From the NCBI GenBank assembly GCA_013214525.1, contig JABSSG010000014.1, positions 33,232-97,231 on the forward strand: a stretch of DNA of 64,000 nucleotides, in the 5' to 3' direction. A program made the translations under genes and the position numbers. This DNA comes from Rickettsiales bacterium. GTDB taxonomy: Bacteria; Pseudomonadota; Alphaproteobacteria; Rickettsiales; JABSSG01. The notes beneath the pieces were generated by a model that worked only from the letters and a program-made list of their open reading frames with translations, made no database searches and was not told where the DNA came from. Of the stretch, positions 4,350 through 62,186 are shown piece by piece (position 1 is the stretch's first letter; the number at the start of each line of letters is the position of its first letter).

Positions 4350-7103
4350 ATGGTATCTCATATAGATATAGCGATAGTAATTGCTTATATGTTTTTTTGT
4401 TTGGTAGTTGGTTTACTAAATTATGGGAAAATAAAAAATATACGAGATTATACGTTAGGAACAAAATCTTTTCCAACTATTGTATTAATGGTTACTACTC
4501 TCGCAACTACTCTTGGTGCTGAAAAAGTGATAGGCAATGTAGGAAAAATACATAAATTAGGGCTGACCTATATAATACCTCTAATTTTTGTTCCTTTGCC
4601 ATGGTTTATATTAGCAAAAATTATTGCACCTAATTTGCAGACATTTCATAAGCATAAATTTATTTCTTTAAGTGATATTATGGAACATTGGTATGGTGTA
4701 TTAGGGAGATGGTGTACTAATATTATATCTATATTTTTTGCTATTGGTCTTACTGCAATGAGTACGATGGTAATAGGCTACTTACTACATTATTTTCTAG
4801 GTGTTTCAGAAACCATAGGTATGGTTATCGGTCTTGCTGTTGTTACACTTTATTCGGTGTTTGGTGGTATATCCTCGGTCGCTTTTACAGATTTATTTCA
4901 AGCATTAATATTTTTTGTAGCATTACCATTAGCTTGTTTTAAAGGGCTTCAATCTACTGGAGGAATCGAAGCAATATGGAAATCATTGCCCAATAAACAT
5001 ACACAAATACATGATGTTCCTTTATTTGTCAGTTTTATATTGTTTGCATTAATACCTGCTAGTGGAATTCCTTATATACAAAGAGCTTTAATTGCGAAAA
5101 ATGAAAAACAATTCTTGAGAAGTTTTACTGGAGTAGCGATTTTGATTATACCTGTCTTAGTAATAGTGTGCCTAATAGGGTTAATAACTTACGGCAACAA
5201 TCCCAATATAGAATCTGATAAGGTGCTATATTATTTTATAAATAACCATTTGTCGGTGGGTCTAAAAGGGCTAATGATAGCAGGATTACTTGCTTTAATA
5301 ATGTCTACTCAAGATTCATATTTAAATACAGTAAGTGCGTTGCTTGCTCATGACGTTTTTAAACAAAAATGGTCTTCTTTAACTGACAGACAGGAATTAT
5401 TAATTGCCCGTGGTTCTTGTTTAGCTATTTCAATTGCTTCTATTACAATAATTTTTGTAGGCAAAGGTATTATGGAAACTATATGGTTAGTGGTGAGCTT
5501 TGCATATCCGTTAATAACAATACCTTTGATAGCAGGGTTGATTGGTGTACGCATAAGTAAACAATCGTTTGTTGTTTTGATAATATCATCACTTACTACT
5601 ATTATAATCACACGGCTCTTTACAGGTGTATTTGATACAAGAAGTATGTCAGTTGGTATGATAGCTTCAGCAATTGTTTTATATATTTTACACAAAAGAC
5701 ATAAAAGAGAATCTATATTTTCTTTGCCAAAAATTAATGTGACTCAAATGTTTGATAACTTGAGCAAACGAGTTTTAAAGAATTCTTATTCGATCCGCTC
5801 TTTATACACAGTTGGTATGGTTCTTTGTATTAATTTTTTAGTTGGTATATTTTTTGCAAATTTATATTTCTTTAATCCACTTAATGTTTCTTTAGGGGTA
5901 ATGGTGTTTTTACTCCTTATGCTATTATTAAATGAACTTTGGCATTTTTATTTGAAGAGATATTTAATTAATATTTGGAGATTTTGTCTCATTTTAGGTT
6001 TGTTATTTATTCCTTCTTACATATTTTTTGTACATGACTTTCACATTTTTTGGTTATGTAACCTTATATTATCAGCAGTCTTATTTATTGTAGTGAGTGA
6101 TATTATAATTGGTATCGCATTTATAGCAATTGCAGTCCCTCTTGGTTATTTACTGTCTCAAATCTTTTATTCAAATGGTAATTTAATAACGATTGAGTTT
6201 GCCATTATATCATGCCCTGCAATATTAATTGCAATTTCTATGCAGCTGTATGACCGTCATACTATTGCTAAAACTAGCCATAAAGAAATAACGTATGAAT
6301 TAAAAAAAATCATGCAAGAAAAAGTAATGGAATCTCTAAATATTAAAGAAGAATTTCTGAATAAACTTAATCATGAACTAAGAATACCTCTTAGCGTGAT
6401 GATTAATACATCAGATAGTATTTATGAAATGTGGGATAAGTTATCCGACAAAGATAAGAAAAAATATCTTAAAGACGTTGTTGACAACAGGAAAAGGTTT
6501 GAAAGTTATACATTAAACATTCTTGATCTTGCAGATTTAGTACAAAAAAGATTTAAGCTAAATATAAAACCTAATGTTAATTTAGTAAAACTAAGTGAAG
6601 CAGCTATTGATAAAGCAACATCACTTATTGTAGATGCTAACAAGAATCTTAAAATCAAATTAGAAGTAAAAAATGCTAAAATGGCAATTGCTAGCTGTGA
6701 TGAAAAAAGAATACAGCAAGTGCTGAGCAACTTACTATCAAATGCTATTAAATATAGTGATCATGGAATTATAAAAGTACTTATTAAACCTGCTAAAGAT
6801 AAAATAGCAATTTCAGTTTCTGATGAAGGGGTAGGAATACCAAAAAGTGAAAAGTCAAAAATATTTACGCCATTTTTTGAAAGCAGTAGAACTAAAAGCT
6901 CTGCTGAAGGTAAAGGACTTGGTTTATCTATAGCTCAAAAGATAATTACTTTACATCATGGTATTATTAAAGTGAAGGATAATGACAGCAAACATTCAGG
7001 GTCTATATTTACATTTATATTGCCATGTGAGTCTGAGGAAGTAGCAAGTGAGGATGGTTTGGCAACAAAACGTAATCTGGAAGAGTTTAAAAAAGCTGCT
7101 TAA
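4350..7103 (+). CDS. Hybrid sodium:solute symporter (SLC5/SSF) domain - 6 TM - histidine kinase, paralogue 1
   Basis: 917 aa. Residues 1 to about 470 are polytopic and SSF-like (about 13 TM). Residues about 480-640 hold six further hydrophobic helices. Then come the H-box FLNKLNHELRIPL, N-box LLSNAIKYS, G1 SDEGVGIP and G2 GKGLGLSIAQ. SD ggaggaag lies upstream of the ATG. Confidence 0.8.
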   Translation: MVSHIDIAIVIAYMFFCLVVGLLNYGKIKNIRDYTLGTKSFPTIVLMVTTLATTLGAEKVIGNVGKIHKLGLTYIIPLIFVPLPWFILAKIIAPNLQTFHKHKFISLSDIMEHWYGVLGRWCTNIISIFFAIGLTAMSTMVIGYLLHYFLGVSETIGMVIGLAVVTLYSVFGGISSVAFTDLFQALIFFVALPLACFKGLQSTGGIEAIWKSLPNKHTQIHDVPLFVSFILFALIPASGIPYIQRALIAKNEKQFLRSFTGVAILIIPVLVIVCLIGLITYGNNPNIESDKVLYYFINNHLSVGLKGLMIAGLLALIMSTQDSYLNTVSALLAHDVFKQKWSSLTDRQELLIARGSCLAISIASITIIFVGKGIMETIWLVVSFAYPLITIPLIAGLIGVRISKQSFVVLIISSLTTIIITRLFTGVFDTRSMSVGMIASAIVLYILHKRHKRESIFSLPKINVTQMFDNLSKRVLKNSYSIRSLYTVGMVLCINFLVGIFFANLYFFNPLNVSLGVMVFLLLMLLLNELWHFYLKRYLINIWRFCLILGLLFIPSYIFFVHDFHIFWLCNLILSAVLFIVVSDIIIGIAFIAIAVPLGYLLSQIFYSNGNLITIEFAIISCPAILIAISMQLYDRHTIAKTSHKEITYELKKIMQEKVMESLNIKEEFLNKLNHELRIPLSVMINTSDSIYEMWDKLSDKDKKKYLKDVVDNRKRFESYTLNILDLADLVQKRFKLNIKPNVNLVKLSEAAIDKATSLIVDANKNLKIKLEVKNAKMAIASCDEKRIQQVLSNLLSNAIKYSDHGIIKVLIKPAKDKIAISVSDEGVGIPKSEKSKIFTPFFESSRTKSSAEGKGLGLSIAQKIITLHHGIIKVKDNDSKHSGSIFTFILPCESEEVASEDGLATKRNLEEFKKAA

Positions 7104-7133
7104 GATTGCTAATTGCAGTTTAAAAATATAAAA

Positions 7134-7157
7134 TTCTTGTAATCCATTATTTGGGTT
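7134..7157. repeat. Solo copy of family-2 terminal repeat
   Basis: ttcttgtaatccattatttgggtt versus the right end of the full element, ttcttaatccattattggggtt (28201..28222). Confidence 0.45.
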
Positions 7158-7210
7158 AAAAATATCTGCTTTAGAAATAGTTAACATAGATTTTTCTATG
7201 CAAAAAAGTT

Positions 7211-8275
7211 ATGCTAAATAATATATTTATTTTTATAGTAGCTAAAATGACCGTAGAGAATCAAAATTATACGACTGCAGATAAAAATCTTTTCTTGAGC
7301 AAGTCTTTAAATCAAAAAGAATTTTCTAGTCAATCACTTCCTTATGATGCTTCTACTAGAAGATATGAGAGAATAACATCATCTCAAGAAACTTTTATAT
7401 TAATGGATGCTTCTTTAGATAAAAATACTATTAAACCATTCATGTTTATAGCAGACCTCTTATATAAAAATGGTTATTCTGCACCTAAGATATTTACACA
7501 AGATAAAAATCTTGGTTTCTTACTTTTAGAAGATTTAGGCGAGATAAGCTATGCTTCTTTATTGACAAATCCTTCTAAAGAAGATTTAGCAGAAATAGAA
7601 AAAAAACTTTATAAAAAAGCAATTGACCTTTTAATTGATTTACATAAAAAAATAGTCGTCAATAAGATAGAAGTCTCTTCTTATAAAAAAGAATTTCTTA
7701 CTAATGAAGCTGTTTTATTAGTAGATTGGTATATTCCAACATTGACTGGAAGTCCAATTTCAGAGAATTTAAAACAAGAGTATATACAGGCATGGGATAA
7801 AATTTTTAATCATATTTATTATGCTGAATCATGTTTAGTTCTAAGAGATTATCATATTGATAATTTAATGTGGTTAGAAGATAGACAAGGAATAAAAAAA
7901 GTTGGTTTGCTTGATTTCCAAGATGCTGTTAAAGGTTCTTATGCTTATGACGTAGTTTCTCTTCTTGAAGATGCAAGACGTGATGTTAATGAAAAGATGT
8001 CTCAAGAATTGTTGGAGTATTATATAAGTCAAATGGAGATATTGGATAGAAAGAAATTTCTATCTGATTATAAAATACTTGGGACACAACGTAGTTGTAA
8101 AATTGTAGGGATTTTTACTAGAAAAGCAATACGTGATAATGATACAAGATACTTAAAACATTTATCAAGGGTGTGGGGGTATATAAAAAAACATATTAAT
8201 CATCCAATACTTGAGCCTTTAAGGATTTGGTTTCAAAAAGCGAATATTCCTGTTATGAACATTTCTACTTTATAA
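7211..8275 (+). CDS. amgK: Anomeric MurNAc/GlcNAc kinase-like phosphotransferase (APH fold)
   Basis: 354 aa. YDASTRRYERI N-terminal motif, LRDYHIDNLMW catalytic loop and GLLDFQDA. It sits immediately upstream of a MurU-like nucleotidyltransferase, the conserved AmgK-MurU pairing. The true start may be the internal Met (MTVENQ...). Confidence 0.6.
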   Translation: MLNNIFIFIVAKMTVENQNYTTADKNLFLSKSLNQKEFSSQSLPYDASTRRYERITSSQETFILMDASLDKNTIKPFMFIADLLYKNGYSAPKIFTQDKNLGFLLLEDLGEISYASLLTNPSKEDLAEIEKKLYKKAIDLLIDLHKKIVVNKIEVSSYKKEFLTNEAVLLVDWYIPTLTGSPISENLKQEYIQAWDKIFNHIYYAESCLVLRDYHIDNLMWLEDRQGIKKVGLLDFQDAVKGSYAYDVVSLLEDARRDVNEKMSQELLEYYISQMEILDRKKFLSDYKILGTQRSCKIVGIFTRKAIRDNDTRYLKHLSRVWGYIKKHINHPILEPLRIWFQKANIPVMNISTL

Positions 8276-9623: not shown

Positions 9624-9674
9624 AGTATACTAATCGTACTTAAAAACCGGAGTCTTCAGGTATGATTAGTATAT
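9624..9674. repeat. Family-1 mini-element (two TIRs back to back)
   Basis: agtatactaatcgtacttaaaaaccggagtcttcaggtatgattagtatat. The reverse complement of its 3' part, atatactaatcatacctgaagactccggtttttaag, matches the left end of copy B, atacccattggacttgaaggctccgatttttaag. Confidence 0.6.
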
Positions 9675-13266: not shown

Positions 13267-15459
13267 TTAAGTTAACTCTTTTTCTCTCTCTAAATTCAAC
13301 AACATATCTTTATGTTTTAAATTAGTAGGCAGGATAATTTCAACTATTGCATTATCATAATTGCCATTCTTGATTATAAGCTCACCTTCGTGGTCATCAA
13401 CAATTTTTTTTACTATTGCAAGTCCTAACCCTGTTCCTTTTGCTTTAGTAGTAAAATATGGTTCAATAATTTTGTTTATTGAGGATTTTTTAAAACCTTG
13501 GCCACTGTCTTCTACAATAATATGTGCGGCATTAGATTTTTTATATAAAGATACGTTTATAAATTTTTCTTTTTTATGATTTATAATACCTCGTAATGCT
13601 TCCTCTGAATTTTTGATTACGTTTGTTAATAGTTGGCGTATTTGTGTCGAATCGAAACATCCTATTATATTTTTTTCTATATTTGCTTCAAATTTAATAT
13701 CTTTGCCAATAATTTTACGAGAAAAGATTACATCAGTAATTAACCTACTCAAATCTACTCTGTCAAACATAGGAGTAGGCATTCTAGCAAATTTGGAGAA
13801 CTCTTCTATTATTTCTCCTATATCTTGAGAGTGTCTTATAATTGTATTGACATACATGTTAAAATCTTTTTTATCTTTTATATATTTTGAATATTTTTCC
13901 TTAATTCTTTCTGCTCCAAGCTGTATTGGTGTTAAAGGATTTTTCACTTCATGAGCAATTTTTCGTGCAATATCAGACCAAGCTTTATATCTCTGTGCCT
14001 GAATAATCTGTGTCATATCATCAAATGCTATAATATAGCTTATAACATTATTTTGTTTATCAACATCCTTACCTACTTTAACCAGAAAAGTCAGTGCACG
14101 TCCTTTAATTCTAGATTTTACTTCTCCACTAATTTCTTTAGTTTTTGAGTTAGAGATTTTATTTATTAAACCAAGAAATTCAGGTAATAATTGGAATAAA
14201 TCTAAACTCTTTATATCAGATTTTTTCAGACCTAGCAGTTTCATACCAGATTCGTTGATAAGTGTTACTTTACGATTAGAAGAAACTGCGATAATTCCTG
14301 TAGAAACCCCCGATAATACCACCTCCATAAATTTTCTTTTTTGATCTATTTCATTATATGCATGGATCAGTTTTTCTTGTTGTTCTGATATTCTCTCAGT
14401 CATTAGATTAAAAGCTCTGGAAAGATTTGCTATCTCGTCATTTTCTGGTCCTTCAGGTAATTTAACTGCGAATTTTCATTTCTTTACTTTTTCGGTTGCT
14501 AATACAAGCCTTATAATTGGATCAAGTATAGCTTTAGAAAAAGATATGCCAATAATGCCTGCGATTAAAAGCAACACTATGGAGATCATTAAAAACGCAA
14601 AAGAAGACTTTAATTGTAATTCCATTATATTGCTTTTAATGGAATTATATTTAGTTGCAGCATTCTGGGATTGTTTTATATGTTTTACAATAGCATTGTC
14701 TATTTGCTTACCAATAACTAAAAAACTATTTGGCGTGCTATGTAAGGCTGTTATAGCACGAATTTTATTAAGTTTTTTAAATATAACAGTTTCTCCATTT
14801 GCTGCCCTTTTATAATATTCATCAGGTATTCTCTCAAGAGACAATGAAATACCAAATCTACTTCTAAGAACTGGGGCATGTCCATAAAATATAGCGGCCT
14901 CAGACATATCATTTAACTCGACAAAAGAGTTAATTACGTCAAAAAATAATTTAGGTTTAGAGGCTAAATCATGTTTAATTATGTTGTCGTCTAGTTCACT
15001 AGCAATAGATTTAGCTTTCATTTTTATCATCTCTTGATTTTCTTTAAGATATGATTCAGCTACAAGAACTGATTCTTCTAGCACTGTTGTAATTTTTTTA
15101 TCAAACCAAGATTCAACTACATAATAAAGAAAGAAATTAGCAATTATTGCTAAAATTAAAGTTGGGACACCTGAGAGCAAACTAAAAATTAATAGGATTC
15201 TTTTTTGTAATCTTGATCCATAAAGCTTTCGTTTCTTATTTATTCTACTGAAAAATATTTTTCTAAATACGAAAGACATAAGAAAAACAAAGAGGAGCAG
15301 ATCTAAAATCAAAATAAAAACAAGGTAACGATTATACTTTCCTGTGTCCCAATTGCTTTCAAGCAAGAAGAAGGTGCCTGTGAGAGACACAGCTAATAAG
15401 AGTATTAAAAACGTTGCTCTTATTTTTATGAAAGAAAAAAAGTGTTTAACTTTTTGCAT
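13267..15459 (-). pseudogene. ntrY: ntrY sensor kinase reading frame interrupted by one in-frame TGA (14476..14478)
   Basis: Track ORFs 14476..15459 (TM sensor plus start of HAMP) and 13267..14403 (PAS, H-box AHEVKNPLTPI, HATPase) are in the same frame (15459-14403=1056). The 72 nt between them have no stop and encode KFAVKLPEGPENDEIANLSRAFNL, which is the rest of the HAMP domain. Confidence 0.7.
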
Positions 15460-15876: not shown

Positions 15877-18588
15877 ATGGTATCTCATATAGATATAGCG
15901 ATAGTAATTGCTTATATGTTTTTTTGTTTGGTAATAGGGTTGCTTAAATATGGTAAGATTAAAAATATACGTGACTATACACTTGGTACTAAACCTTTTC
16001 CAACTATCGTATTAATGGCAACAACTCTTGCTACTGTAATAGGCACAGGGCGTATAATTGGTAATACAGAGAAAGTATATGAATTAGGAATAATTTATAT
16101 GATTTCTTTTATTTTTGTTCCTATATCTTGGCTTATTCTAACAAGAATGCTTCTTCCTAATATTCAAATATTTCGTAAACATAAATTTATTTCATTAAGC
16201 GATATTATGGAATATTGGTATGGTAAGTTAGGCAGATGGGTAACTAATGTCATATCAATATTGATAGCAGTTGCAGTTGCTGCAAGTAGTGCTATAGCTA
16301 TTGGCTATCTCCTGCATCACTTTTTAGGTATCTCAGAAACTATAGGCATAATTATTGGTTTAGGTGTTGTTACAATTTATTCTGCATTTGGAGGTATAAC
16401 TTCTGTTGCTTTTACTGATGTATTTCAATTTTTAATATTTTTTATAGCCCTACCTATCGCTTGTTTTATTAGTTATCAGGACACAGGAGGGCTTGAAAAA
16501 ATATGGCATTCACTACCAGAAACACATACACATATTAAAGTAGATAATATTCCTTTATTTGTTAGTTTCATATTTTATTCATCACTGCCTTATATTGATA
16601 TTTCAAGTATTCAAAGAGTTTTAATAGCGAAGGATAGGGAGCAATTATTGCGGGCTTTTATAGGGGTAGCAATTTTAACAATTCCTCTAATGATGATAGT
16701 GTGTTTTATAGCTTCAGTAACTTACCATGATAATCCTAATATTGAATCTGGTAAAGTATTGTATCATTTTATAGATAATTATTTACCTCCAGTTTTGAAA
16801 GGGTTTATGATAGCTGGGATTTTGGCAGTTATAATGTCTACTCAAGATTCTTACTTAAATACCACAGGTGTATTGATATCACATGATGTTTGCAAGCAAA
16901 TTTGGCCTTCTTTGACGGATAGACAAGAATTATTTATTGCTCGTATTTCTTGTGTTGTTATAGCTTTAATTTCTATCTCAATGATTGTTTTAACAAAGGG
17001 TATTATGGATATGATATGGATTGCTGGTAGTTTTTCAGCACCATTAGTAGCAACTCCATTAATGGCAGGACTGATCGGAGCACGAATTAATAAAAGTTCA
17101 TTTATTGGTGTAGTGATCTTTTCACTTATAGCCATAGTAATTACACGTTTTGTTACAGGAGTATTTGATACAAGAAGTCTTGCGGTTGGTATGGTAACTT
17201 CAGCTATTGTTTTGTATATCTTACACAAAAGAAATAAAGGAGAGTCTGTATTTTCTTTTCCTAGAATTAATGTGAATTTGTTATTTAATAAACTAAATGA
17301 GCAAGTATTAAATAGTTCTTATTCTATTAATTCTTTATATAGGGTTGGTGTAGTTCTTTGTGGTAATTTTTTAGTTGGAGTAGCTTTTGCAAATTTAGAT
17401 TTCTTTACTCCATTTAATGTTACTCTTATTGTTATATCAAGTTTATTGATGTTGCTTTTACTAAATGAATTCTGGAATTATAGATTAAAGAGGTATTCCA
17501 TTGATATTTGGAAGGCTTGTCTCACCATTGGTCTATTATTTGTTCCTTCTTACATATTTTTTGCACATGACTTTCATATGCTTTGGTTATGTAATCTTAT
17601 ACTGTCGACAATTTTATTTATTGTGATGAGTGATATTGTAGTTGGTATTGCATTTGCAGCAATTGCTGGGTCAATTGGCTATCTCCTTTCTCAGATTTTT
17701 TATTTCAATGTAAGTTTAGTATCAAGAGAGTTTGGAAATATTTCATGTGCTGCAATGTTAATTGCAATTGTTATACAAATATATAATCGTCATACTATTA
17801 CTAAGAATACTTATAGGGAAATAATGCGAGAAGTGGATAGAAAAACTGAAGAAAGAGCTGTAGAACTTAAGAAAGCTCTCAATATAAAAAAAGAATTCCT
17901 AAATAAATTAAGCCATGAAATCAAAAATCCTATACATAATATGCTTGCCTTATCAGAAGGCATGTATGATTCGTGGTATGAATGGTCAGAAGAGGAAAGG
18001 CAAACATTTATTAAAGGAGTGATCGATAGTAAAAAAAGTTTGATGGATTATACTTCAAGTATTCTTGACCTTGCTTTATTGGAAGAGGAAAAAATGCCTC
18101 TTGATATAAAAAAAGGAGTAGATCTTATTGATCTTGCTAAAGATGCTATTAATAGAATTTCACCTCTTGTTATAAAACAGAACAAAAATATCGGTGTTGA
18201 GTTAGAAATACAAGCCTCAAAGCCAGCAATTGTTAAATGTGATTCTAAACGAATAAGTCAAGTAATAGATAGTATATTAAAAAATGCTATTACATATACC
18301 CAGTATGGTACAATTAAACTATCTATTGATACTAAAAAAGATTATGTAAGAGTATCTATAGCAGATCCAGGAGTGGGTATACCTGACGATGAAAAGTTAG
18401 AGATATTTACCCCATTTTTTGAAGGTAGTAGAACCAAGAGTTTAGCTAGAGGTAAAGGAGTTGGACTTTCTATTGCACAAAAGATAATGATTTTACACGG
18501 GAGTACTATTCAAGTGAAAGATAATGAAAGTAAACCAACTGGGTCAGTCTTTTCATTTATATTACCATCTAAAGACCTCGAATTTTAA
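15877..18588 (+). CDS. Hybrid SLC5/SSF domain - 6 TM - histidine kinase, paralogue 2
   Basis: 903 aa, collinear with 4350..7103 along its whole length. H-box FLNKLSHEIKNPI, N-box ILKNAITYT, G1 ADPGVGIP, G2 GKGVGLSIAQ. The first 19 codons are nucleotide-identical to paralogue 1. Confidence 0.8.
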   Translation: MVSHIDIAIVIAYMFFCLVIGLLKYGKIKNIRDYTLGTKPFPTIVLMATTLATVIGTGRIIGNTEKVYELGIIYMISFIFVPISWLILTRMLLPNIQIFRKHKFISLSDIMEYWYGKLGRWVTNVISILIAVAVAASSAIAIGYLLHHFLGISETIGIIIGLGVVTIYSAFGGITSVAFTDVFQFLIFFIALPIACFISYQDTGGLEKIWHSLPETHTHIKVDNIPLFVSFIFYSSLPYIDISSIQRVLIAKDREQLLRAFIGVAILTIPLMMIVCFIASVTYHDNPNIESGKVLYHFIDNYLPPVLKGFMIAGILAVIMSTQDSYLNTTGVLISHDVCKQIWPSLTDRQELFIARISCVVIALISISMIVLTKGIMDMIWIAGSFSAPLVATPLMAGLIGARINKSSFIGVVIFSLIAIVITRFVTGVFDTRSLAVGMVTSAIVLYILHKRNKGESVFSFPRINVNLLFNKLNEQVLNSSYSINSLYRVGVVLCGNFLVGVAFANLDFFTPFNVTLIVISSLLMLLLLNEFWNYRLKRYSIDIWKACLTIGLLFVPSYIFFAHDFHMLWLCNLILSTILFIVMSDIVVGIAFAAIAGSIGYLLSQIFYFNVSLVSREFGNISCAAMLIAIVIQIYNRHTITKNTYREIMREVDRKTEERAVELKKALNIKKEFLNKLSHEIKNPIHNMLALSEGMYDSWYEWSEEERQTFIKGVIDSKKSLMDYTSSILDLALLEEEKMPLDIKKGVDLIDLAKDAINRISPLVIKQNKNIGVELEIQASKPAIVKCDSKRISQVIDSILKNAITYTQYGTIKLSIDTKKDYVRVSIADPGVGIPDDEKLEIFTPFFEGSRTKSLARGKGVGLSIAQKIMILHGSTIQVKDNESKPTGSVFSFILPSKDLEF

Positions 18589-18760: not shown

Positions 18761-19885
18761 TTATTTGTTTAACGCTCTATCTTTTTTTACTAAAGAAACA
18801 GTGCCGTTAACTAAAGAGGTAAATATATCATCTATTGTGATACCTAACCTTCTTGCGTTTGAAATATCATATACTCCATCTAAGGCTTTGCTGTGTTCTC
18901 CATGAGTGCCTCGTACAGCTAGGCTATATTTCTTAGCAATTGATTTAATGGTTTTGATGTCAATATTTTTAAGTTTTATGTGAACACTTACACGCATTCC
19001 TGTACCTATGTTTGTAGAGTCACTGTTGAGATATCCAAGTTTATCATCATGTGCAAATTTTAAATCTTTCTCTAATATATTTAGGGCATGAACAAATTTA
19101 CTATGTATTTTTTCTAAATCAGCAGTTTTTTCTAAATATATAATTCTGAGATGGTCTTCTTCGTTAATCCACACTATAAATTTTTTATCTTTACTAATGT
19201 AAGCACCTCTTCCTACAGGCCAATTATCTGCTATACCTGCGGATTGTAAGTATTTATCCTTATTCATAGGTTTAAAGATCAGATGTTCATTTACCATTTT
19301 TTTGTATTGATCTTCAGATAATGAACCTATGGAATAATATGTGCCTTGGTATTTTTTAGGTAATTCTTTTATTGCAGTAAGCACAAGATCTTTCACCTGT
19401 ATTCTTTGTTTTTTTGTCATAGAAGATGGGAAAGGGAAAGAAGATAAATTCCTTGCAACTCGTATTCTTGTGGAGATTACATTTTTGGAAAGTATTTTTC
19501 GATCTTCTTTTGTGAAATTAAATTTTACTATTTTTGTATTCTTGTTATCCAGAGAGTATGGGTCGTAGTTATGATAGTTTTTTATCGCATGAGAAAAAAT
19601 AGGACTAAACATTGTATAAGATTCTGCATCTCCTGCATAACATCCTATTTTACTGTCTGGGTTTTCTACACCACTTTTTAAAATATGGTCTAATGTGACC
19701 CCAAATTTTGTCTTTTTTTCTTTTAATACATTTCTTTCAGATTCACTTAAAATCTCAAAACCTTCTATACAAAGTGCTTTTGCGTATACCGTGTTACTAA
19801 TAACACCAGACAATAGGGCTATAGACAATAGGGTTAAAGATATATGTTTTAGATATTTAGGGGTGGATTTGAGATTTTGAAACAT
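18761..19885 (-). CDS. Arginine kinase-like phosphagen kinase (ATP:guanido phosphotransferase) with N-terminal signal-peptide-like extension
   Basis: 374 aa. SGVENPDSKIGCYAGDAESY (arginine-specificity loop), STRIRVARN, WINEEDHLRI, GTGMRVSVHIKL and VRGTHGEH..DGVYDISNARRLG parallel arthropod and Limulus arginine kinases. N-terminus: MFQNLKSTPKYLKHISLTLLSIALLSGVISNTVYAKA. Confidence 0.8.
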   Translation of the reverse strand: MFQNLKSTPKYLKHISLTLLSIALLSGVISNTVYAKALCIEGFEILSESERNVLKEKKTKFGVTLDHILKSGVENPDSKIGCYAGDAESYTMFSPIFSHAIKNYHNYDPYSLDNKNTKIVKFNFTKEDRKILSKNVISTRIRVARNLSSFPFPSSMTKKQRIQVKDLVLTAIKELPKKYQGTYYSIGSLSEDQYKKMVNEHLIFKPMNKDKYLQSAGIADNWPVGRGAYISKDKKFIVWINEEDHLRIIYLEKTADLEKIHSKFVHALNILEKDLKFAHDDKLGYLNSDSTNIGTGMRVSVHIKLKNIDIKTIKSIAKKYSLAVRGTHGEHSKALDGVYDISNARRLGITIDDIFTSLVNGTVSLVKKDRALNK

Positions 19886-20091: not shown

Positions 20092-20128
20092 TATACTAAC
20101 CAAACTTTTTCAGGTATGCTTAGTATAT
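20092..20128. repeat. Family-1 mini-element (degenerate)
   Basis: tatactaaccaaactttttcaggtatgcttagtatat resembles the 9624..9674 mini-element with a central deletion. Confidence 0.4.
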
Positions 20129-20159: not shown

Positions 20160-22238
20160 ATGTCTCAGATAGAAATTTCAAAAGTAAGGAACATAGGTAT
20201 TTGTGCCCATATAGATGCAGGAAAAACAACTACTACAGAACGCATTCTCTATTATACAGGTAAATCTCATAAGATTGGTGAAGTGCATGAGGGTGCTGCT
20301 ACTATGGATTGGATGGAGCAAGAACAAGAGAGAGGGATTACTATTACTTCTGCTGCAACTACATGTGCATGGAATGATCATCGCATTAATATAATTGATA
20401 CCCCAGGTCACGTTGATTTTACAATTGAAGTTGAAAGATCATTGCGTGTTTTAGATGGTGCCGTTGTAGTATTTGATGGTGTTGCAGGGGTTGAACCACA
20501 ATCTGAAACAGTATGGCGTCAAGCTGACAAATATAGTGTGCCGAGAATTTGTTTTGTAAATAAAATGGATCGTATAGGTGCAGATTTCATGCGTTGTGTA
20601 GAAATGATTAAAGATAGGCTAGGAGCAGTGCCCCTAGTTATGCAGTTGCCAGTTGGTACAGAAGATAAGCTGGTGGGTTTAGTCGACCTAATAAAGATGA
20701 GAGCAATTATTTGGAAAGGAGATGATTTAGGCGTTGGCTTTTCTTATGAAGAAATTCCTGCTGATATGAAATCTCAAGCAGAAGAAATGAGGTTAAAACT
20801 TATTGAAACTGCAGTTGAAGCAAAAGATTCTGCCATGGAAAAATATTTATCAGGGGAGGAAATTTCAGAAGATGAATTAAAAGAATGTATTAGACAGGGT
20901 ACAATTGATAGTAAATTTATTCCTGTTTTATGTGGTAGTGCATTTAAAAATAAAGGAGTTCAACCATTACTTGATGCAGTAATTGATTATCTTCCTTGTC
21001 CAATAGATGTGCCTGCAATTAAGGGAGTAGATGAAAAAGATGAGCCAATAGAAAGAAAATCTGATGCTAATGCTCCACTTTCAATGCTTGCATTTAAAAT
21101 TATGACAGATCCTTTTGTAGGGTCACTTACATTCTGTAGGGTTTACTCTGGAGTATTAAAATCTGGTCAGACTGTTTATAATTCAGTCAAAAAGAATAAG
21201 GAAAGAATAGGGCGTATCCTTCTTATGCATGCAAATGATAGGGAAGATGTAAAAGAAGCAAGGGCTGGTGATATTGTTGCTCTAGCAGGTTTGAAAAATA
21301 CAAATACTGGAGATACCTTATGTGATTTGAACAGTGTAGTTATTTTGGAGAGGATGGAGTTCCCAGAGCCTGTTATAGAGGTTGCTATAGAACCAAAAAC
21401 TCAAGCTGATTACGAGAAAATGGGGGTAGCACTTGGTAGATTAGTTGCTGAAGATCCTTCATTAAGGGTATCAATGGATGAAGAGACAAATCAGACTGTT
21501 TTAAAAGGAATGGGAGAATTGCATCTTGAAATTATTGTTGACAGGCTTAAAAGAGAATTTAAAGTTGAGGCAACTATTGGTGCACCTCAAGTAGCGTATA
21601 GAGAAACAATTACTAAATCAGCTGAGATAGATTACACGCATAAAAAACAATCTGGAGGAGCAGGTCAATTTGCTCGAGTAATAATGACTCTAGAACCTAC
21701 AAAGCCAGGAGAAGGATTTATATTTGAGAGTAAAATCTTTGGTGGTGCTATTCCTAAGGAATATATTCCTGGTGTTGAAAAAGGCTTAAAAGCTTCTATG
21801 GAAAGTGGGGTGGTAGCTGGATATCCTATGATAGATTGGAAAGCAACATTAACTGATGGTGCCTTCCATGATGTGGATTCAAGTGTGCTTGCCTTTGAAA
21901 TAGCAGCAAAAGCTGCATTCAAAGAAGGAGTGCCAAAGGCTGGCCCTAAGTTGCTTGAGCCAATCATGAAAGTTGAAGTCATTACTCCTGAAGAATATAT
22001 GGGTGATGTGATAGGTGATCTAAATAGCAGACGTGGTCAAGTAAGTGGTATGGAAACACGCGGTAATGCTAGAGTAATTAATGGTACGGTTCCTTTGGGG
22101 TCTATGTTTGGATATGTTAATACGCTAAGATCTGTTTCTCAAGGACGTGCTCAATATACAATGATATTTTCTCATTATGAGCAAGTGCCAAATAATGTTG
22201 CAGATGAGATTATTAAAAAAACTACAGGAGCTAGTTAA
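20160..22238 (+). CDS. fusA: Elongation factor G
   Basis: 692 aa. [32 protein letters not shown] and full-length EF-G domain order. Confidence 0.95.
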
Positions 22239-22298
22239 TATTTTATACAGCTTTGCCTGCTGTAGTTATATATCTGTTATTCTTCAAATACGATTAGT

Positions 22299-22464
22299 AT
22301 ATACTCCTCGTACTTGAACATTCCTATTTTTAAGTTTGAAAATAAAGTTGCTATCTTCGCTTAAAAATGCCTCAAATATCGCCAATATTCTCGGATTTTT
22401 AAGCTTGATATCACCTCTATTTTCTTTCTTAAAATATCGTAATCTTCAAGTACAAGGAGTATAT
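22299..22464. repeat. Family-1 palindromic element, full copy A (166 bp)
   Basis: TIRs atatactcctcgtacttgaa (22299..22318) and ttcaagtacaaggagtatat (22445..22464), 19/20 complementary. The internal sequence is collinear with copies B and D (tttaagtttgaaaataaag ... atcgccaatatt ... ttttctttcttaaaat). Confidence 0.8.
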
Positions 22465-22479
22465 TTCTCTAATTTGGTT

Positions 22480-23088
22480 TTAGATAAGACCGATATTTTT
22501 TATAATAATTTTTCCAAAATATCTTTGTGGATCTGGAAGAATAAAAGCAGGTTTTTTATATTCAAAAGTAATTGTTAAAACTGCTTGTATTGTACAGCCG
22601 AGTATTTTTCCTGTGTCGCTATCAATGCCGCTTGGTATGTCTATAGAGATTATTTTCTTTCCATTTGTTGCTTTAATGATTTTTTTATATATTCCTCTAA
22701 CCTCTTTATGTAAGCCTATACCAAATAATGCATCTATTATTAGATCATAATTATCTAAGTTTAGATCTTTAAAATCTATAATTTTGTCTTGCCATTTAGC
22801 TCTGTTAATTGCTGATGCTTCAGACAATTTTTTGATATCAATTGATGTATCTGAGGCAACTTTAACTTTCCAACCATTATTTTTTAAAAGTCTTGCTACA
22901 ACAAATCCATCGCCACCATTATTACCTGGGCCACATAATACTAATATTTTACAGGGTTTGTAATATTTAATTACTTCTTCATATACAGATGTGCCTGCTC
23001 TTTCCATTAATGATGTTATAGAAATTCCTGATTGGATGGCTTTTTCTTCCAAAGCGAATATTTCTTTGCTAGTGAGGATTTTCTCCAT
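22480..23088 (-). CDS. nnrE: NAD(P)H-hydrate epimerase (YjeF N-terminal domain only)
   Basis: 202 aa. ILVLCGPGNNGGDGFVVARLL and IIDALFGIGL motifs. No C-terminal dehydratase domain. Confidence 0.7.
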   Translation of the reverse strand: MEKILTSKEIFALEEKAIQSGISITSLMERAGTSVYEEVIKYYKPCKILVLCGPGNNGGDGFVVARLLKNNGWKVKVASDTSIDIKKLSEASAINRAKWQDKIIDFKDLNLDNYDLIIDALFGIGLHKEVRGIYKKIIKATNGKKIISIDIPSGIDSDTGKILGCTIQAVLTITFEYKKPAFILPDPQRYFGKIIIKNIGLI

Positions 23089-23096
23089 AGTTATTT

Positions 23097-23789
23097 TTAT
23101 AGATCCGGTCTATATTTTTTGGTACGTGTTTTTGCATTTTCTAAACGCCATTTCTTGATTTTTTCATGATTGCCACTTAGAAGTATTTCAGGAGTTTTTA
23201 GTCCTTTCCAACTTGCTGGTTTTGTATATTGGTCGTATTCAACTAAATCTTCATAATCAGTATCAGTACCAAAGCTTTCTTCCTTATTTGAAATGTCCTT
23301 GCCTAATACGCCTGGCATAAGACGGACGCAAGTATCAATTACAACAAAAGCAGCAGTTTCTCCACCAGATAAAATATAGTTACCGATACTTAATTCTTCT
23401 GCTTGATAATAATCTAATACTCGCTGGTCTACTCCTTCAAACCTTCCACAAATTAGGATTATATTTTTCTGGACTAGAATCTTACTAGCAAGCTTTTGTG
23501 TTAGTAATTTTCCTCGTGGAGATAGATATATTACTGTAGCTTTAGGGTTAGTAAAGTTTTTTTGAGCATTCTCTATTGCGTTTCCTAGCACATCTGGTCT
23601 AAAAACCATACCTGCTCCACCGCCAGATGGTGAATCGTCTACAGAGTTATGTTTATCTATTGCAAAATCTCTAATGTTTATTACTTCTAAATTCCAAATT
23701 TTTTTTTCAAGAGCTTTACCGACAACTGATATTCCAAGGGAGCCGGGAAATAGATGGGGAAATATAGTAAGAACCTTAACGTTAAACAT
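23097..23789 (-). CDS. trmD: tRNA (guanine37-N1)-methyltransferase
   Basis: 230 aa. VLTIFPHLFPG, VDDSPSGGGAGMV, ICGRFEGVDQRV. Confidence 0.9.
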   Translation of the reverse strand: MFNVKVLTIFPHLFPGSLGISVVGKALEKKIWNLEVINIRDFAIDKHNSVDDSPSGGGAGMVFRPDVLGNAIENAQKNFTNPKATVIYLSPRGKLLTQKLASKILVQKNIILICGRFEGVDQRVLDYYQAEELSIGNYILSGGETAAFVVIDTCVRLMPGVLGKDISNKEESFGTDTDYEDLVEYDQYTKPASWKGLKTPEILLSGNHEKIKKWRLENAKTRTKKYRPDL

Positions 23790-23805
23790 GATGGAGTGTA
23801 TTAAA

Positions 23806-24891
23806 TTATAGTTTATGACGTTTCTTTGATCGTCTAGCTCTGGTTCTACTCCGCATATTTTGTTTTTTTAAGTTCTTTTTTATTAAAAGATATATAGGAG
23901 AATTTTTGTTTTCGGCTACATAGTCTAAAGCTGAATTGCCTGAGTTATCTAATTTTTTCAGGTTGCAGTTTTTTTTAATTAAAAAATTTGCTACTTCAAA
24001 GTTTTTCATTTTTGCAGCTATCATAATAGGAGTCATTCCCTCTTCGTTTGATAAGTTTACGTTTGCACCTTTGGAAATTAAAAATTTAGCCATATTATTT
24101 CTATTATGTAAAATTGCAGTTATAAGTAAACTATTACCTAATTTGTCTTTAACAGAAAGTAAATGGTAATTATTAACTAAAGCATGTAAAGCATCTCTGT
24201 CCCCAGTTTTAATTGATTGAAAAGCGTTATATGCTAATTGGGATAGATATAAGGGCTTTGGTAAATGGGGATTATCTACATGCACATATGCAGGTAAAGT
24301 TTGTGTTTTATAGTTAATTGCTGAAAATCTGGCTATATCTTGAATAGCTGCTTGTTCTTTAGGAGATTTTTCAATGTCTTTTAGTAATAATATTTTTTTA
24401 TATATGTTAAAACTATTGGATATAAAAGCCTGTTCTGGAATGTTTGGGTTAATGTAGTCATAAAAATAAACACTTGGGTCTTTATCTATAAAATTAGTTA
24501 TTTCTTTAATAAAGTAAGCTAGTTGCACAGTATTATAGGTAGAGTTTTTGATATCTTGCTTTTTAGGGAGAATATTTCTATCAGTAAGGGAAACGAATGA
24601 TGGATTGATTACTTTTGGTGATTTATTTAAAGGGTTTGCACAACAAAATCTATCATAAAATATGGATAGAAATAATATTACAAATAAGGATACCCATTGG
24701 ACTTGAAGGCTCCGATTTTTAAGCATGCCCCTGCGAAGGCAGGGGTTAAAAATAAAGCAACTATTCTCACATGAAAATGTCTTGAATATCGCCAATATTA
24801 TCGAATTTTCATGCTTGATATTGACTTCATTTTCTTTCTTAAAATCTCGGACTTTCCAAGGCCAATGGGTATATTTCCAAAATTTGTGCAT
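23806..24891 (-). CDS. Ankyrin-repeat protein with N-terminal hydrophobic segment and basic C-tail
   Basis: Maximal ORF is 361 aa. ANK repeats: GNSLLITAILHNRNNMAKFLISKGANVN, EGMTPIMIAAKMKNFEVANFLIKKNCNL, SGNSALDYV. The first ~67 codons lie inside repeat copy B. An alternative start, M56 (ATG 24726..24724), gives MLKNRSLQVQWVSLFVILFLSIF... The C-terminus is KKQNMRSRTRARRSKKRHKL. Confidence 0.7.
   Translation of the reverse strand: MHKFWKYTHWPWKVRDFKKENEVNIKHENSIILAIFKTFSCENSCFIFNPCLRRGMLKNRSLQVQWVSLFVILFLSIFYDRFCCANPLNKSPKVINPSFVSLTDRNILPKKQDIKNSTYNTVQLAYFIKEITNFIDKDPSVYFYDYINPNIPEQAFISNSFNIYKKILLLKDIEKSPKEQAAIQDIARFSAINYKTQTLPAYVHVDNPHLPKPLYLSQLAYNAFQSIKTGDRDALHALVNNYHLLSVKDKLGNSLLITAILHNRNNMAKFLISKGANVNLSNEEGMTPIMIAAKMKNFEVANFLIKKNCNLKKLDNSGNSALDYVAENKNSPIYLLIKKNLKKQNMRSRTRARRSKKRHKL
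24690..24872. repeat. Family-1 palindromic element, full copy B (183 bp, with nested GC hairpin)
   Basis: TIRs atacccattggacttgaaggctccga (24690..24715) and tcggactttccaaggccaatgggtat (24847..24872). Collinear with copy A, except for an extra cccctgcgaaggcagggg hairpin at about 24728..24745. Confidence 0.8.
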
Positions 24892-24899
24892 TTATTTTT

Positions 24900-25322
24900 T
24901 TATATAATTTTTTTAAGTATTTTTTTTATTTCTACTTCTAAAACCTCTTTTACTATGCCTTCTAAATTATTATTTAACCATGATTTAAGATAAGGTCGTA
25001 ATGTTTCTTTAAAAATTTCTCTTATTTCTTTTTCTGAGATGTTATGAGTGTTTTTTGTTAAAGTATTTAATCTATGAGTAAATTTTTTGATGTGTTTTGC
25101 TATAGGATCAAAATTCTTTTTTTCAATTATATCTTCTAAGTTATTATCTTCTAGTGTGGAAGAACTTGTAACGACATTAGTAAGTTCCAATATTTCTTGA
25201 TCTTCACAAACTTCATTAGAAGAGGGAAGAGGACTTTGTGTTTTTTTTATATCCTCATTAATGGTTTTTTTTATTTTTTCTAATATTTGGTCTATTGAAT
25301 CTACGTCTGTAGTTTTACTCAT
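24900..25322 (-). CDS. popZ: PopZ-like pole-organizing protein (DUF2497)
   Basis: 140 aa, acidic. N-terminal IDQILEKIKKTINED (compare MEEILASIRRIISED) and C-terminal LRPYLKSWLNNNLEGIVKEVLEVEIKKI (compare LRPxLKEWLDxNLPxIVExxVxxE of Caulobacter PopZ as I recall it). Confidence 0.65.
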   Translation of the reverse strand: MSKTTDVDSIDQILEKIKKTINEDIKKTQSPLPSSNEVCEDQEILELTNVVTSSSTLEDNNLEDIIEKKNFDPIAKHIKKFTHRLNTLTKNTHNISEKEIREIFKETLRPYLKSWLNNNLEGIVKEVLEVEIKKILKKII

Positions 25323-25346: not shown

Positions 25347-25387
25347 AGTAACCATACTTGTCGGTATTCTCATATATGATTAGTATA
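25347..25387. repeat. Family-1 mini-element (degenerate)
   Basis: agtaaccatacttgtcggtattctcatatatgattagtata resembles 9624..9674. It lies between the popZ-like start and the tolC stop. Confidence 0.35.
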
Positions 25388-26742: not shown

Positions 26743-26861
26743 ATGAGTTTTTAACTTTTACCCCGATGTTAACATAATTAAAGTATATACAACTATATTG
26801 TAAAAAAAAAGCCTTGATAAGTTTTATCCACAACATTAAATTAAATTGTAAATCCATTGCA

Positions 26862-26897
26862 CTTAAAAATCGGAGTTTTCAAGGAAAGTGGCTATAT
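26862..26897. repeat. Solo family-1 left end abutting tRNA-Cys
   Basis: The reverse complement of cttaaaaatcggagttttcaaggaaagtggctatat is atatagccactttccttgaaaactccgatttttaag, which matches the left end of copy B. Confidence 0.5.
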
Positions 26898-26972
26898 GGC
26901 CGAGTAGCAAAGTGGTAATGCCGTGGACTGCAAATCCACTATACATCGGTTCGATTCCGATCTCGGCCTCCA
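26898..26972 (+). tRNA. tRNA-Cys (GCA), CCA encoded
   Basis: Hand fold: acceptor GGCCGAG/CTCGGCC, anticodon stem GTGGA/TCCAC, loop CTGCAAA, T-arm ATCGG-TTCGATT-CCGAT, discriminator U73 (a Cys identity element), then CCA. Confidence 0.9.
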
Positions 26973-27092: not shown

Positions 27093-28043
27093 ATGGTTGA
27101 AAATCAAAATATATTAGAGCAATTTTTAGAAAAAATTATTGTAGAAAGAGGAAGTTCTAACAATACGATAATCGCTTATAAACGTGATATTCAAGACCTT
27201 TTTCAATTTTTATTAAAAACTAACCATGAAGATTTGACGGAAGTTTCTCTTACTGTGTTACGAAATTATATATCTTCTCTTACTGAGAAGAGTTTTTTAC
27301 AACCTAAAACAATTGCTCGTAAAATATCTGCAATAAAACAATTTTTTTTGTTTCTTCATGAAGAAAAATTTATTAAAGCAAATGTTGCTGGTAACTTAGA
27401 GACTCCAAAACTTGCTCAGAATATTCCTACAATATTTGATGAATCTTGTGTAGAGGCACTTCTTGATTCGTGCTATAAGGATACTTCTCCTATTGGGTTA
27501 AGAAATATTGCTATGCTTGAATTGCTTTATGCAACAGGAATGAGAGTATCTGAGCTTATTTCTCTGAGATTATCTCAATTGAATTTGAATGATACAGCAA
27601 ATATTCGTCCTTATATTATTATTAAGGGTAAAGGCAGTAAGGAAAGAGTGGTTGCAATAAATCAAAAGTCAATTGAAGCAATTAATAAATATTTGTCTCG
27701 GATAGGTAGTTTTACAAAAGATAAAAACAATCCGTGGTTATTTCCTTCAAAGCAATCTAAAACTGGGTATATGACTAGACAATATTTTGGTAAAATTCTG
27801 AAAAAAATTGCTTATCAAGCGGGATTAAATTTTCAAAAAATTTCTCCTCATAAAATTCGTCATTCATTTGCAACCCATTTGTTAAATAATGGTGCTAATT
27901 TAAAGGTGATTCAAGAATTGCTAGGGCATAAAGATATTGCCACTACTCAAATTTATACTCATGTAGCAAATGAGAAGTTAAAACAAACAGTTGAAAAATT
28001 TCATCCTTTGTCTAAAAAAGCTATTTTTACTCCTCGCACTTGA
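27093..28043 (+). CDS. xerD: Tyrosine recombinase XerD
   Basis: 316 aa. RGSSNNTIIAYKRDIQDL, ATGMRVSELISL, HKIRHSFATHLL, LLGHKDIATTQIYTHV. Confidence 0.8.
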   Translation: MVENQNILEQFLEKIIVERGSSNNTIIAYKRDIQDLFQFLLKTNHEDLTEVSLTVLRNYISSLTEKSFLQPKTIARKISAIKQFFLFLHEEKFIKANVAGNLETPKLAQNIPTIFDESCVEALLDSCYKDTSPIGLRNIAMLELLYATGMRVSELISLRLSQLNLNDTANIRPYIIIKGKGSKERVVAINQKSIEAINKYLSRIGSFTKDKNNPWLFPSKQSKTGYMTRQYFGKILKKIAYQAGLNFQKISPHKIRHSFATHLLNNGANLKVIQELLGHKDIATTQIYTHVANEKLKQTVEKFHPLSKKAIFTPRT

Positions 28044-28048
28044 ACATT
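28029..28048. repeat. Solo family-1 TIR overlapping the xerD 3' end
   Basis: actcctcgcacttgaacatt versus copy A actcctcgtacttgaacatt (19/20). The xerD stop TGA lies inside it. Confidence 0.6.
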
Positions 28049-28061
28049 TTTGTTAATTTGT

Positions 28062-28222
28062 AACCCCAATAATGGATTAGGAAGATTTTAGATTTTTAGG
28101 ATATTTTTAGTGAAAATTAGCAGTTTTTATGAAGGAATAGCAGGGTTATTTCAAGAAAAAACTGCTGATTTGCAGCAAAAATAGACAAAAATATAGTGTT
28201 TTCTTAATCCATTATTGGGGTT
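28062..28222. repeat. Family-2 palindromic element, full copy (161 bp)
   Basis: TIRs aaccccaataatggattaggaa (28062..28083) and ttcttaatccattattggggtt (28201..28222), 21/22 complementary. There is an internal second inverted repeat, gcagttttt ... aaaaactgc. Confidence 0.75.
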
Positions 28223-28296
28223 TGTAGTTTAGTAAGTAGTTGACTCTTGCCCTGATAAAGGTATTCTTTTTTAAAAATAAAAGACAGGTAATTGTT

Positions 28297-33793: not shown

Positions 33794-33823
33794 TTTTTTA
33801 CTATAGTAACTTCAGTAATGTTT

Positions 33824-33853
33824 TTCTAATCCATTACTGTGATTATTAGGGTT
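33824..33853. repeat. Solo family-2 TIR-like copy
   Basis: ttctaatccattactgtgattattagggtt resembles ttcttaatccattattggggtt with a small insertion. Confidence 0.4.
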
Positions 33854-43773: not shown

Positions 43774-43792
43774 TTACACCCAAAAAATACTA

Positions 43793-43816
43793 TACTCGTC
43801 GTACTTACGACGAGTA
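43793..43816. terminator. Bidirectional Rho-independent-type hairpin between convergent genes
   Basis: tactcgtcgt-actt-acgacgagta: perfect 10-bp stem and 4-nt loop, with T-runs on both strands (catatttta on +, gtatttttt on -). It lies between the comF stop (43773) and the stop of the minus-strand ORF at 43823. Confidence 0.55.
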
Positions 43817-43822
43817 CATATT

Positions 43823-44221: not shown

Positions 44222-44302
44222 ATCTTTCCTCTCATTAATATTAAATTATCAACTTATAACTGATCATTATATTTATAAGGTAATTTTTACACTTTGTGTA
44301 GT

Positions 44303-44352
44303 CTCTATTTTCTTTCTTAAAATTTCGGAACTTTTGAGTACAATGAGATATA
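44303..44352. repeat. Family-1 element, right-end fragment (copy C)
   Basis: ctctattttctttcttaaaatttcggaacttttgagtacaatgagatata is collinear with the right 50 bp of copies A and B. Confidence 0.65.
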
Positions 44353-50756: not shown

Positions 50757-50920
50757 ATATACTTATCATACTTGAAAACTCTGGCTTTTAAGTTTGAAAA
50801 TAAAGCTGTTCTCTTCATTGAGAAGCATCTTAAATACCCCTAATAGTCTTGGGTTTTTAAGTTTGATATCATCTATATTTTCTATCTTAAAATCTCTGAA
50901 TTTTAAAGTACGATAGATAT
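50757..50920. repeat. Family-1 palindromic element, full copy D (164 bp)
   Basis: Ends atatacttatcatacttgaaaa and ttttaaagtacgatagatat. The internal sequence is collinear with copy A (tttaagtttgaaaataaag ... tttttaagtttgatatc ... ttttctatcttaaaat). It sits 41 nt upstream of the secA ATG. Confidence 0.75.
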
Positions 50921-58154: not shown

Positions 58155-58257
58155 AGATCAAGTCCTAAAGTTAATTTTTATGTATTTAGTCATCTCCTTA
58201 AGGTAGATGCATCACCATATAAATAACAATGTTTATTTTATAGGTCAAGTCCTAAAA

Positions 58258-62161: not shown

Positions 62162-62186
62162 AAAACCAATTGGTACGAGGAGTATA
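62162..62186. repeat. Solo family-1 TIR
   Basis: The reverse complement of aaaaccaattggtacgaggagtata contains tatactcctcgtacc, identical to the copy A left TIR core. Confidence 0.45.

Follow-up and report, generated by a model that had tools for sequence, protein, structure and literature searches.

Rickettsia palindromic elements (RPEs) are the textbook example of selfish DNA whose insertion into a protein-coding gene does not destroy the gene, and to our knowledge the only descriptions of such elements are from Rickettsia and, for a counterpart, from Wolbachia. [quoted passage not shown] In Rickettsia, RPEs are palindromes of 100-150 bp that occur in frame within genes, and Wolbachia has their counterpart (PMC3767692, PMC10969869). 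Bacterial MITEs in general were tabulated by Delihas in 2008 as repeats of 100-200 bp with terminal inverted repeats, TA termini, a long stem-loop and sometimes an open reading frame (ORF), and the anatomy of the elements in the window fits this class as tabulated (PMC2229807). We consider it likely that they are a family, restricted to its lineage, of palindromic repeats that are mobile but non-autonomous and belong to the bacterial MITE type exemplified by the RPEs. The family is previously uncatalogued; the phenomenon itself is already known.

Like RPE-1, -2 and -3, the family consists of dispersed whole-length palindromes of 100-185 bp with terminal inverted repeats and without a transposase (Ogata et al. 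2000 and 2002, summarised in PMC3767692, PMC10969869 and PMC2229807), and it further shares with RPEs an open frame, an in-frame location in protein genes and a host of the order Rickettsiales. It differs from them in showing no similarity at the level of peptide models, in having a host outside the genus Rickettsia, in its termini (ATATAC...GTATAT), and in presenting one in-frame case so far, which lies in a signal peptide and not in an enzyme surface loop. The family thus behaves like an RPE but is not one by sequence or by host. The WPE of Wolbachia (TIGR02697; Ogata, Suhre and Claverie 2005, cited in PMC3767692) is likewise a coding-compatible palindromic repeat in a member of Rickettsiales other than Rickettsia, but none of the element peptides matches its model. 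The Correia/NEMIS elements of Neisseria are also reminiscent of the present family: they measure about 105-155 bp, carry about 24 bp of terminal inverted repeat, end in TA, fold into a long stem-loop, have shorter forms with internal deletions and lie at gene boundaries (PMC2229807). However, their sequence and host are unrelated, and they differ in that a TA target duplication has been demonstrated for them, as have IHF sites and functions linked to promoters or RNase III. The ERIC/IRU elements of enterobacteria, imperfect palindromes of about 127 bp with ORFs and occasional intragenic copies (PMC2229807, PMC10969869), differ in having 7-bp terminal repeats, another sequence and other hosts.

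The window has about 30% GC and encodes Rickettsiales-type type IV secretion proteins (VirB6, VirB8 and VirB9). Its TrmD, SecA and ankyrin protein have identical NCBI entries labelled 'MAG: ... [Rickettsiales bacterium]' (MAG, metagenome-assembled genome), and the sequencing run of its scaffold is listed among marine metagenomes (PMC8831587). The SecA is only about 58% identical to the nearest named Rickettsiales SecA proteins; the host is accordingly a deep-branching, uncultured marine member of Rickettsiales and not a Rickettsia. Scaffold coordinates below are those of the ENA scaffold BOEU19-1_SAMN09765703_METAG-scaffold_2 (237,995 bp), which encodes the XerD protein of the window and on which window position 1 corresponds to about 33,229. 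We also covered 8 kb to the right of the window (L039) and 5.6 kb to its left, as well as stretches of 15-23 kb from each of several relatives (including L029, L030, L032 and L034), which were chosen by TrmD and SecA proteins 67-81% identical to those of the window.

Anatomy and copies of the palindromic family

The three full copies named in the earlier note are copy A (22299..22464, 166 nt), between the convergent genes fusA and yjeF_N; copy B (24690..24872, 61 codons in 183 nt), which lies in frame within the 5' part of an ankyrin gene; and the more decayed copy D (50757..50920, 164 nt), between a divergent rotamase-like gene and secA. All three hold up in a profile search, in which a family profile built from them matches each copy at nhmmer E-values from 2.5e-47 (A) through 7.6e-46 (B) to 4.9e-44 (D). 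Their alignment has a mean column identity of 78% and contains the internal blocks that had been noticed before, namely tttaagtttgaaaataaag, atcgccaatatt and ttttctWtcttaaaat. The basic unit is about 162-166 nt long (183 nt in B), has terminal inverted repeats of about 20-35 nt and forms a single full-length hairpin. The same profile also matches the reverse strand of each copy, at E-values from 4.9e-15 (A) to 8.2e-8, and A, B and D are therefore palindromic along their whole length, beyond their ends alone. The arms of A, for example, at 22299-22331 and 22432-22464, are 85% complementary over 33 nt. Folding of the copies as RNA, which had been proposed as a check, bears this out: each adopts one long hairpin, with -52.2 kcal/mol and a z-score of -11.3 for A, -63.9 kcal/mol and -6.8 for B, and a z-score of -3.3 for D. 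With units of 162-183 nt, three long copies in the window, two outside it and one in a relative, plus fragments, the family has the size and copy number of a bacterial MITE.

Copy B alone additionally contains a nested GC-rich hairpin of 21 nt, atgcccctgcgaaggcagggg with the core ccccTGCgaagGCAgggg, at 24725..24745. This sequence occurs once in the window and corresponds to an alignment gap in A, D and the copy of the relative L029; in style it is reminiscent of the short GC hairpins in RPE-4, -6 and -7 of Rickettsia.

Beyond the full copies, the end pattern TATACTNNTCGTACTTGAA, allowing up to 3 mismatches, matches at 10 places in the window as against 0.36 expected by shuffling, a result that also speaks against the chance similarity which the earlier note had named as a danger to its proposal. 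An end profile built from ten element ends recovers 9639-9674 (E 8.7e-6), 26862-26897 (E 9.7e-6), 44318-44350 (E 3.3e-4) and 28028-28048 (E 0.055). These and the family profile together define a set of truncated forms. The largest of them is a right-half fragment at 44284..44352 on the plus strand, which matches profile positions 98-161 at an nhmmer E-value of 9.4e-7 and contains the third of the end-profile matches just given. A mini form at 9624..9674 joins a complete 36-nt end to the other terminus in a 50-nt hairpin (nhmmer E 4e-5, with the end pattern on both strands), while another, at 20092..20128, consists of two termini back to back and matches the pattern with 3 mismatches at 20109-20127 on the minus strand. 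A mini hairpin of 29 nt at 43790..43818, situated between convergent genes, is likewise formed by two termini, matches the pattern and also the terminal 14-mer with 1 mismatch, and is followed on the minus strand by a run of six T.

Solo ends are found at four further places. An inverted end, tatactaatcgtatttgaa, touches the left end of A at 22281..22302 (minus strand; end pattern with 1 mismatch); this end and the hairpin at 43790-43818 were absent from the list of the earlier note. A 36-nt end on the minus strand at 26861..26897, which the end profile recovers with the E-value of 9.7e-6, abuts the 5' end of tRNA-Cys (26898-26972) and is 79% complementary to the left end of B; at the equivalent position L029 has unrelated sequence. 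Another end lies on the plus strand at the terminus of xerD (28026..28061; pattern with 2 mismatches, end profile E 0.055), and the terminal 14-mer TATACTCCTCGTAC, identical to the left end of A, recurs exactly on the minus strand at 62173..62186, with 0.00 expected in shuffles. The truncated forms listed in the earlier note were accordingly recovered at 44284-44352, 9624-9674, 20092-20128, 26861-26897, 28026-28048 and 62173-62186. The remaining one, a supposed mini at 25347..25387, is doubtful and finds no support: it shares only the motif gattagtata and is below threshold with nhmmer, with the end profile and with the pattern at up to 3 mismatches.

Two further long copies are located less than 4 kb beyond the right window edge, where they flank a gene with a weak match to the toxin domain Ntox11. 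One of these is internally deleted and lies between convergent genes (L039 6264-6396, scaffold 98,961-99,093; E 6.9e-11); the other lacks its right part and retains the terminal gattagtatat (L039 4577-4704, scaffold 100,653-100,780; E 4.5e-20). A profile search of the 5.6 kb on the left flank revealed no copy. In total, the 78 kb contain about five long copies and eight or so fragments, in contexts that include convergent, divergent and tandem genes, the interior of a coding region and the edge of a tRNA gene, all at AT-rich sites.

The divergence of the copies allowed us to measure covariation between the two arms on the four full copies A, B, D and that of L029, which are 64-76% identical in pairwise comparisons. 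The consensus hairpin has 63 pairs, with 92.8% of the cells paired, and 20 of the 63 pairs have changed on both sides. None of 500 column shuffles reached the observed pairing and covariation, and sliding the partner by 1-3 columns left only 1-4 such pairs. The terminal repeats illustrate the same tendency, as they match within a copy and differ between copies: CTCCTCGTAC/GTACAAGGAG in A, CCCATTGGAC/GGCCAATGGG in B and CCTATCACAAC/GCTGCGATAAG in L029. On the plus strand there are 10 G-U cells and 9 A-C cells; there is thus no bias towards either strand, and this speaks against an RNA function tied to one strand. We infer that the complementarity of the arms has been kept through paired changes by a cause acting at the level of DNA. 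Candidates for this cause are a folded single strand, or hairpin, that would be needed for mobilisation, separate palindromic master copies, or template-switch correction, which is a known mutational process in quasi-palindromes.

Empty sites and insertion into genes

Comparison with the relatives provided filled and empty versions of orthologous sites, which the earlier note had suggested looking for. The closest relative found, L029 (TrmD 81% identical, 31% GC), is the only one among those read that carries the family. It has one copy, a full one at 7859-8020 of its stretch (E 7e-25), located between genes that are absent from the window. No copy came up when the stretches read from relatives of higher GC content (38-44% GC) were searched with the same profile. 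L029, L030 and L032 keep the block TolC-DUF2497-Ank-TrmD-YjeF_N in synteny, and in all three the site of copy B is empty: their ankyrin proteins have 279-287 residues, as against the 361-residue ORF of the window, and their ankyrin genes start at, or at most 60 bp from, the DUF2497 stop. In a protein alignment the ankyrin protein of the window shows 57-61 extra residues that directly follow its first few codons and precede the signal peptide's hydrophobic core, and alignment of the DNA identifies this extra block as element B. Copy D behaves in the same way, as its site is empty in L034, where the spacer between the rotamase gene and secA measures 92 bp versus 250 bp in the window, the difference being D itself; the right junction, ...ATAT|AATATGCAC, is common to both. 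As their sites are empty in relatives, copies B and D are insertions. Every copy has AT or ATAT on both flanks and the empty D site of L034 holds one ATAT, an arrangement compatible with a short AT-type target duplication that is inseparable from the terminal repeats. The presence and absence of copies at orthologous sites, together with the multiple copies, the terminal inverted repeats and the whole-length hairpin, uphold the proposal that this is a dispersed palindromic family with the character of a MITE or an RPE.

In each of the four full copies one frame per strand is open over 45-60 codons, and the symmetry of the element makes it the same frame on either strand. The consensus frame is interrupted solely by the TGA of the 5' terminal repeat (translation ...Y-T-P-R-T-stop). 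Because nothing else interrupts the frame, insertion of an element into a gene would have one of two outcomes: the protein would end at the TGA or, where the TGA has been lost, the element would be read through. Both outcomes are seen, namely the stop at xerD and read-through in B. A rough simulation of neutral divergence gave both frames still open in 4-13% of copies at 15-25% change, and 4 of the 6 long copies are open.

The read-through concerns the ankyrin gene (23806-24891, minus strand), whose signal-peptide coding region contains B with a minus-strand frame free of stops. It also limits the earlier statement that all copies are intergenic or at gene termini, which is correct for the other copies and fails for B. 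On the ankyrin strand the TGA of the terminal repeat is TGG in B, and as the 183 nt amount to 61 codons the ORF begins at the ancestral ATG (24891) and continues across B into the gene. Removal of B leaves MHKFWK|SLFVILFLSIFYDRFCCA, a signal peptide that looks normal and resembles those of the relatives. The public annotations of the gene differ: the ENA version has 361 residues, and the NCBI version (NRA73502.1) has 306 and begins at the ATG at 24726. This ATG is on the reverse strand of the GC-rich hairpin nested in B, and a start there would give a predicted canonical signal peptide, MLKNRSLQVQWVSLFVILFLSIFYDRFCCA.

The stop at xerD is provided by the solo end there. XerD of the window ends in ...HPLSKKAIFTPRT and that of L030 in ...HPLSKKVDSDDLE; from this difference in the C-terminus it follows that the solo end at 28026-28048 supplies the last codons (FTPRT) and the TGA stop. 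A second, unrelated palindromic family is represented next to it by a repeat at 28056-28228, whose arms (28062-28097 and 28187-28222) are 83% complementary and whose termini are aaccccaataatggattagg...cttaatccattattggggtt. It directly follows the truncated end at xerD, as if it had been inserted into, or had replaced, the rest of that copy, and related pieces occur at 7086-7163, 33816-33849 and 58246-58286.

The use of TGA as a sense codon in this host was considered and rejected, since TGA serves as the stop in the gene calls of xerD and others, and an internal TGA was found in one gene only. The latter is an ntrY-like sensor kinase (13267-15459), in which an in-frame TGA at 14476-14478 (minus strand) separates ORFs of 327 and 378 residues, versus a public product of 730 residues. 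This TGA (KVKK*KFAVKLPEG) falls in an apparent HAMP linker where Gly is expected, and it may reflect a pseudogene, a sequencing error or recoding.

Mobility and alternative explanations

Based on these observations we propose that the copies would have spread by transposition, with the enzyme supplied in trans from elsewhere, and would later have decayed into internally deleted minis and solo ends. The element itself is too short to encode a transposase. As the earlier note had stated for the window, no Pfam transposase match is present among its ORFs of at least 90 residues, and none was found among the called genes of the flanks (about 78 kb in all).

Several observations weigh against this proposal. 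Neither an autonomous partner nor a transposase was found in the approximately 78 kb of the host genome covered by the window and its flanks, and the coverage of the relatives amounts to about 120 kb. The pairwise identities of the four full copies show that these are old, and there is no sign of current activity. A target duplication cannot be separated from the terminal repeats because AT and ATAT are self-complementary. The two internally deleted copies outside the window carry stops in the frame, so that any selection for an open frame is putative at most. Finally, depending on the annotation, the ankyrin protein would either carry a 61-residue insert or start inside the element.

Other explanations were weighed against the same evidence. 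A chance resemblance of AT-rich intergenic DNA would be the simplest of them in a genome of about 30% GC, where short AT-rich blocks do recur. An exact scan for the best-conserved 24-nt block, CTNNATTTTCTWTCTTAAAATNTC, matched 10 times among 185,579 species genomes and 16 times among JGI metagenomes, and viral contigs gave 0 matches. All 26 were rejected as family members and are attributable to chance, as they are singletons in unrelated taxa in which only the block fits the family profile; these scans of large collections recognise the exact pattern only, and diverged relatives could escape them. For the family as a whole chance is refuted, with a probability close to nil, by E-values down to 1e-47 over 164 positions, by an end pattern far above shuffles and by the copy in L029 at 7e-25. 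It is also very improbable that the family is a diverged member of a Rickettsiales family already catalogued, be it one of RPE-1 to RPE-8/10 (Rickettsia) or WPE (Wolbachia), as its host order, size class, palindromic form, open frames and in-frame genic insertion might suggest (PMC3767692, PMC10969869). This comparison was made at the level of peptides and not of a DNA consensus. Ten element peptides covering all informative frames had no match at E<=10 among the Pfam and NCBIfam models. A control peptide of the RPE1 type did match TIGR01045 (RPE1), at 4.9e-22, and weak control matches showed that the models of RPE4 (TIGR03777) and WPE (TIGR02697) are in the library; the NCBIfam negative is therefore meaningful for RPE1, RPE4 and WPE. 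Furthermore, an exhaustive HMMER profile search of 1.84 billion representative proteins recovered no Rickettsia or Wolbachia protein. Its single match was P0121, a 281-residue ORF with five tandem repeats of 58 residues, each containing KLKSKSFQIQWVY. The match covers 15 residues and comes partly from flank residues in the query alignment, KLKSKSFQIQWVY resembling LKNRSLQVQWV across the 3' end of the element, and it is probably spurious. When the element peptide alignment was used in a word-indexed protein search, no match reached E<=10 and even the source ORF was missed, because the cluster representative is the 306-residue NCBI version, which lacks most of the element. Blastn searches against plasmids, including those of Rickettsia, and phages yielded only chance matches of 29-36 nt (E 0.5), and the R. 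felis plasmid pRF has no copy. Rfam matched only two tRNAs in the window at the gathering threshold, and in E-value mode over 22200-24960 it gave nothing overlapping the elements. The earlier impression that the sequence is not that of a described family is thus in agreement with searches of the RPE1, RPE4 and WPE models, Rfam, plasmids and phages.

The two alternatives that concern the nature of the unit appear somewhat less remote, and we still rate both as unlikely, to an equal degree. According to one, the repeats would be structured RNA or DNA signals selected by the host, such as terminators, attenuators, mRNA stabilisers or small RNAs, and their copy number would reflect recruitment instead of selfish spread. 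The strong compensatory change that keeps the hairpin is in line with such signals, as is the position of A, the mini at 43790-43818 and the deleted copy at L039 6264-6396 between convergent genes, the place expected of a bidirectional terminator, and so is the T-run that follows the 43790 mini on the minus strand. Yet the contexts are heterogeneous, ranging from convergent, divergent and tandem to coding and tRNA-abutting positions, scans for promoter and terminator consensus sequences found nothing inside the elements above shuffle expectation, Rfam offers no match, the balance of G-U and A-C cells favours no transcribed strand, and the orthologous sites of the relatives work without the element. 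According to the other, the basic unit would be a terminal hairpin of 28-50 nt of the REP type, moved by a RAYT or an IS200/IS605-type Y1 transposase with single-stranded hairpins as its substrate, and the 165-nt forms would be composites. Bare terminal hairpins of 29-50 nt do exist at 9624-9674, 20092-20128 and 43790-43818, and the whole-length covariation suits a mechanism that needs a folded single strand; but no Y1 or RAYT transposase was found in the 78 kb, and long copies from two genomes share a conserved interior of 100 nt, with the result that the minis fit deletion derivatives of a long element better than a build-up from hairpins. The GTAG and CGTC tags that mark REP superfamilies (PMC3733652) were not noticed at the termini of the elements, where no formal test for them was made. 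We accordingly retain the interpretation of the family as non-autonomous mobile palindromic repeats.

Neighbouring genes and implications

Other features of the window are recorded here in their own right. A gene at 18761-19885 (minus strand) encodes an arginine-kinase-type phosphagen kinase (ATP-gua_PtransN and ATP-gua_Ptrans domains), whose N-terminus, MFQNLKSTPKYLKHISLTLLSIALLSGVISNTVYAKA, resembles a signal peptide; its predicted product may be a secreted effector. Two paralogous genes for fusions of an SSF transporter with a histidine kinase (4350-7103 and 15877-18588) are situated 11.5 kb apart and share 69-86% DNA identity over long stretches. Tandem coding repeats of about 160-200 nt occupy 479-1516 in a minus-strand gene of 532 codons with weak FG-GAP matches, and an ORF of 566 residues at the window edge is uvrA, which continues outside the window.

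The elements have a practical consequence for annotation, as they mislead gene callers, exemplified by the ankyrin gene with its versions of 361 and 306 residues, and masking or modelling them is advisable when MAGs of this group are annotated. Copy B is a clean example of a filled versus an empty site within a signal peptide, and the diverged copies with their heavy arm-to-arm covariation form a small data set for testing how palindromes stay palindromic. More generally, a family that is unrelated in sequence and shows RPE behaviour in uncultured marine Rickettsiales widens the phylogenetic range of the phenomenon. This raises the possibility, which we advance tentatively and regard as rather doubtful, that protein-invading palindromes might be an old or repeatedly evolved trait of Rickettsiales instead of a peculiarity of Rickettsia and Wolbachia, that copy B with its GC hairpin might have been co-opted, so that a secreted ankyrin effector would now take from it both its start codon and its signal peptide's n-region, and that the arms might be kept by hairpin-templated (quasi-palindrome) correction and not by selection.

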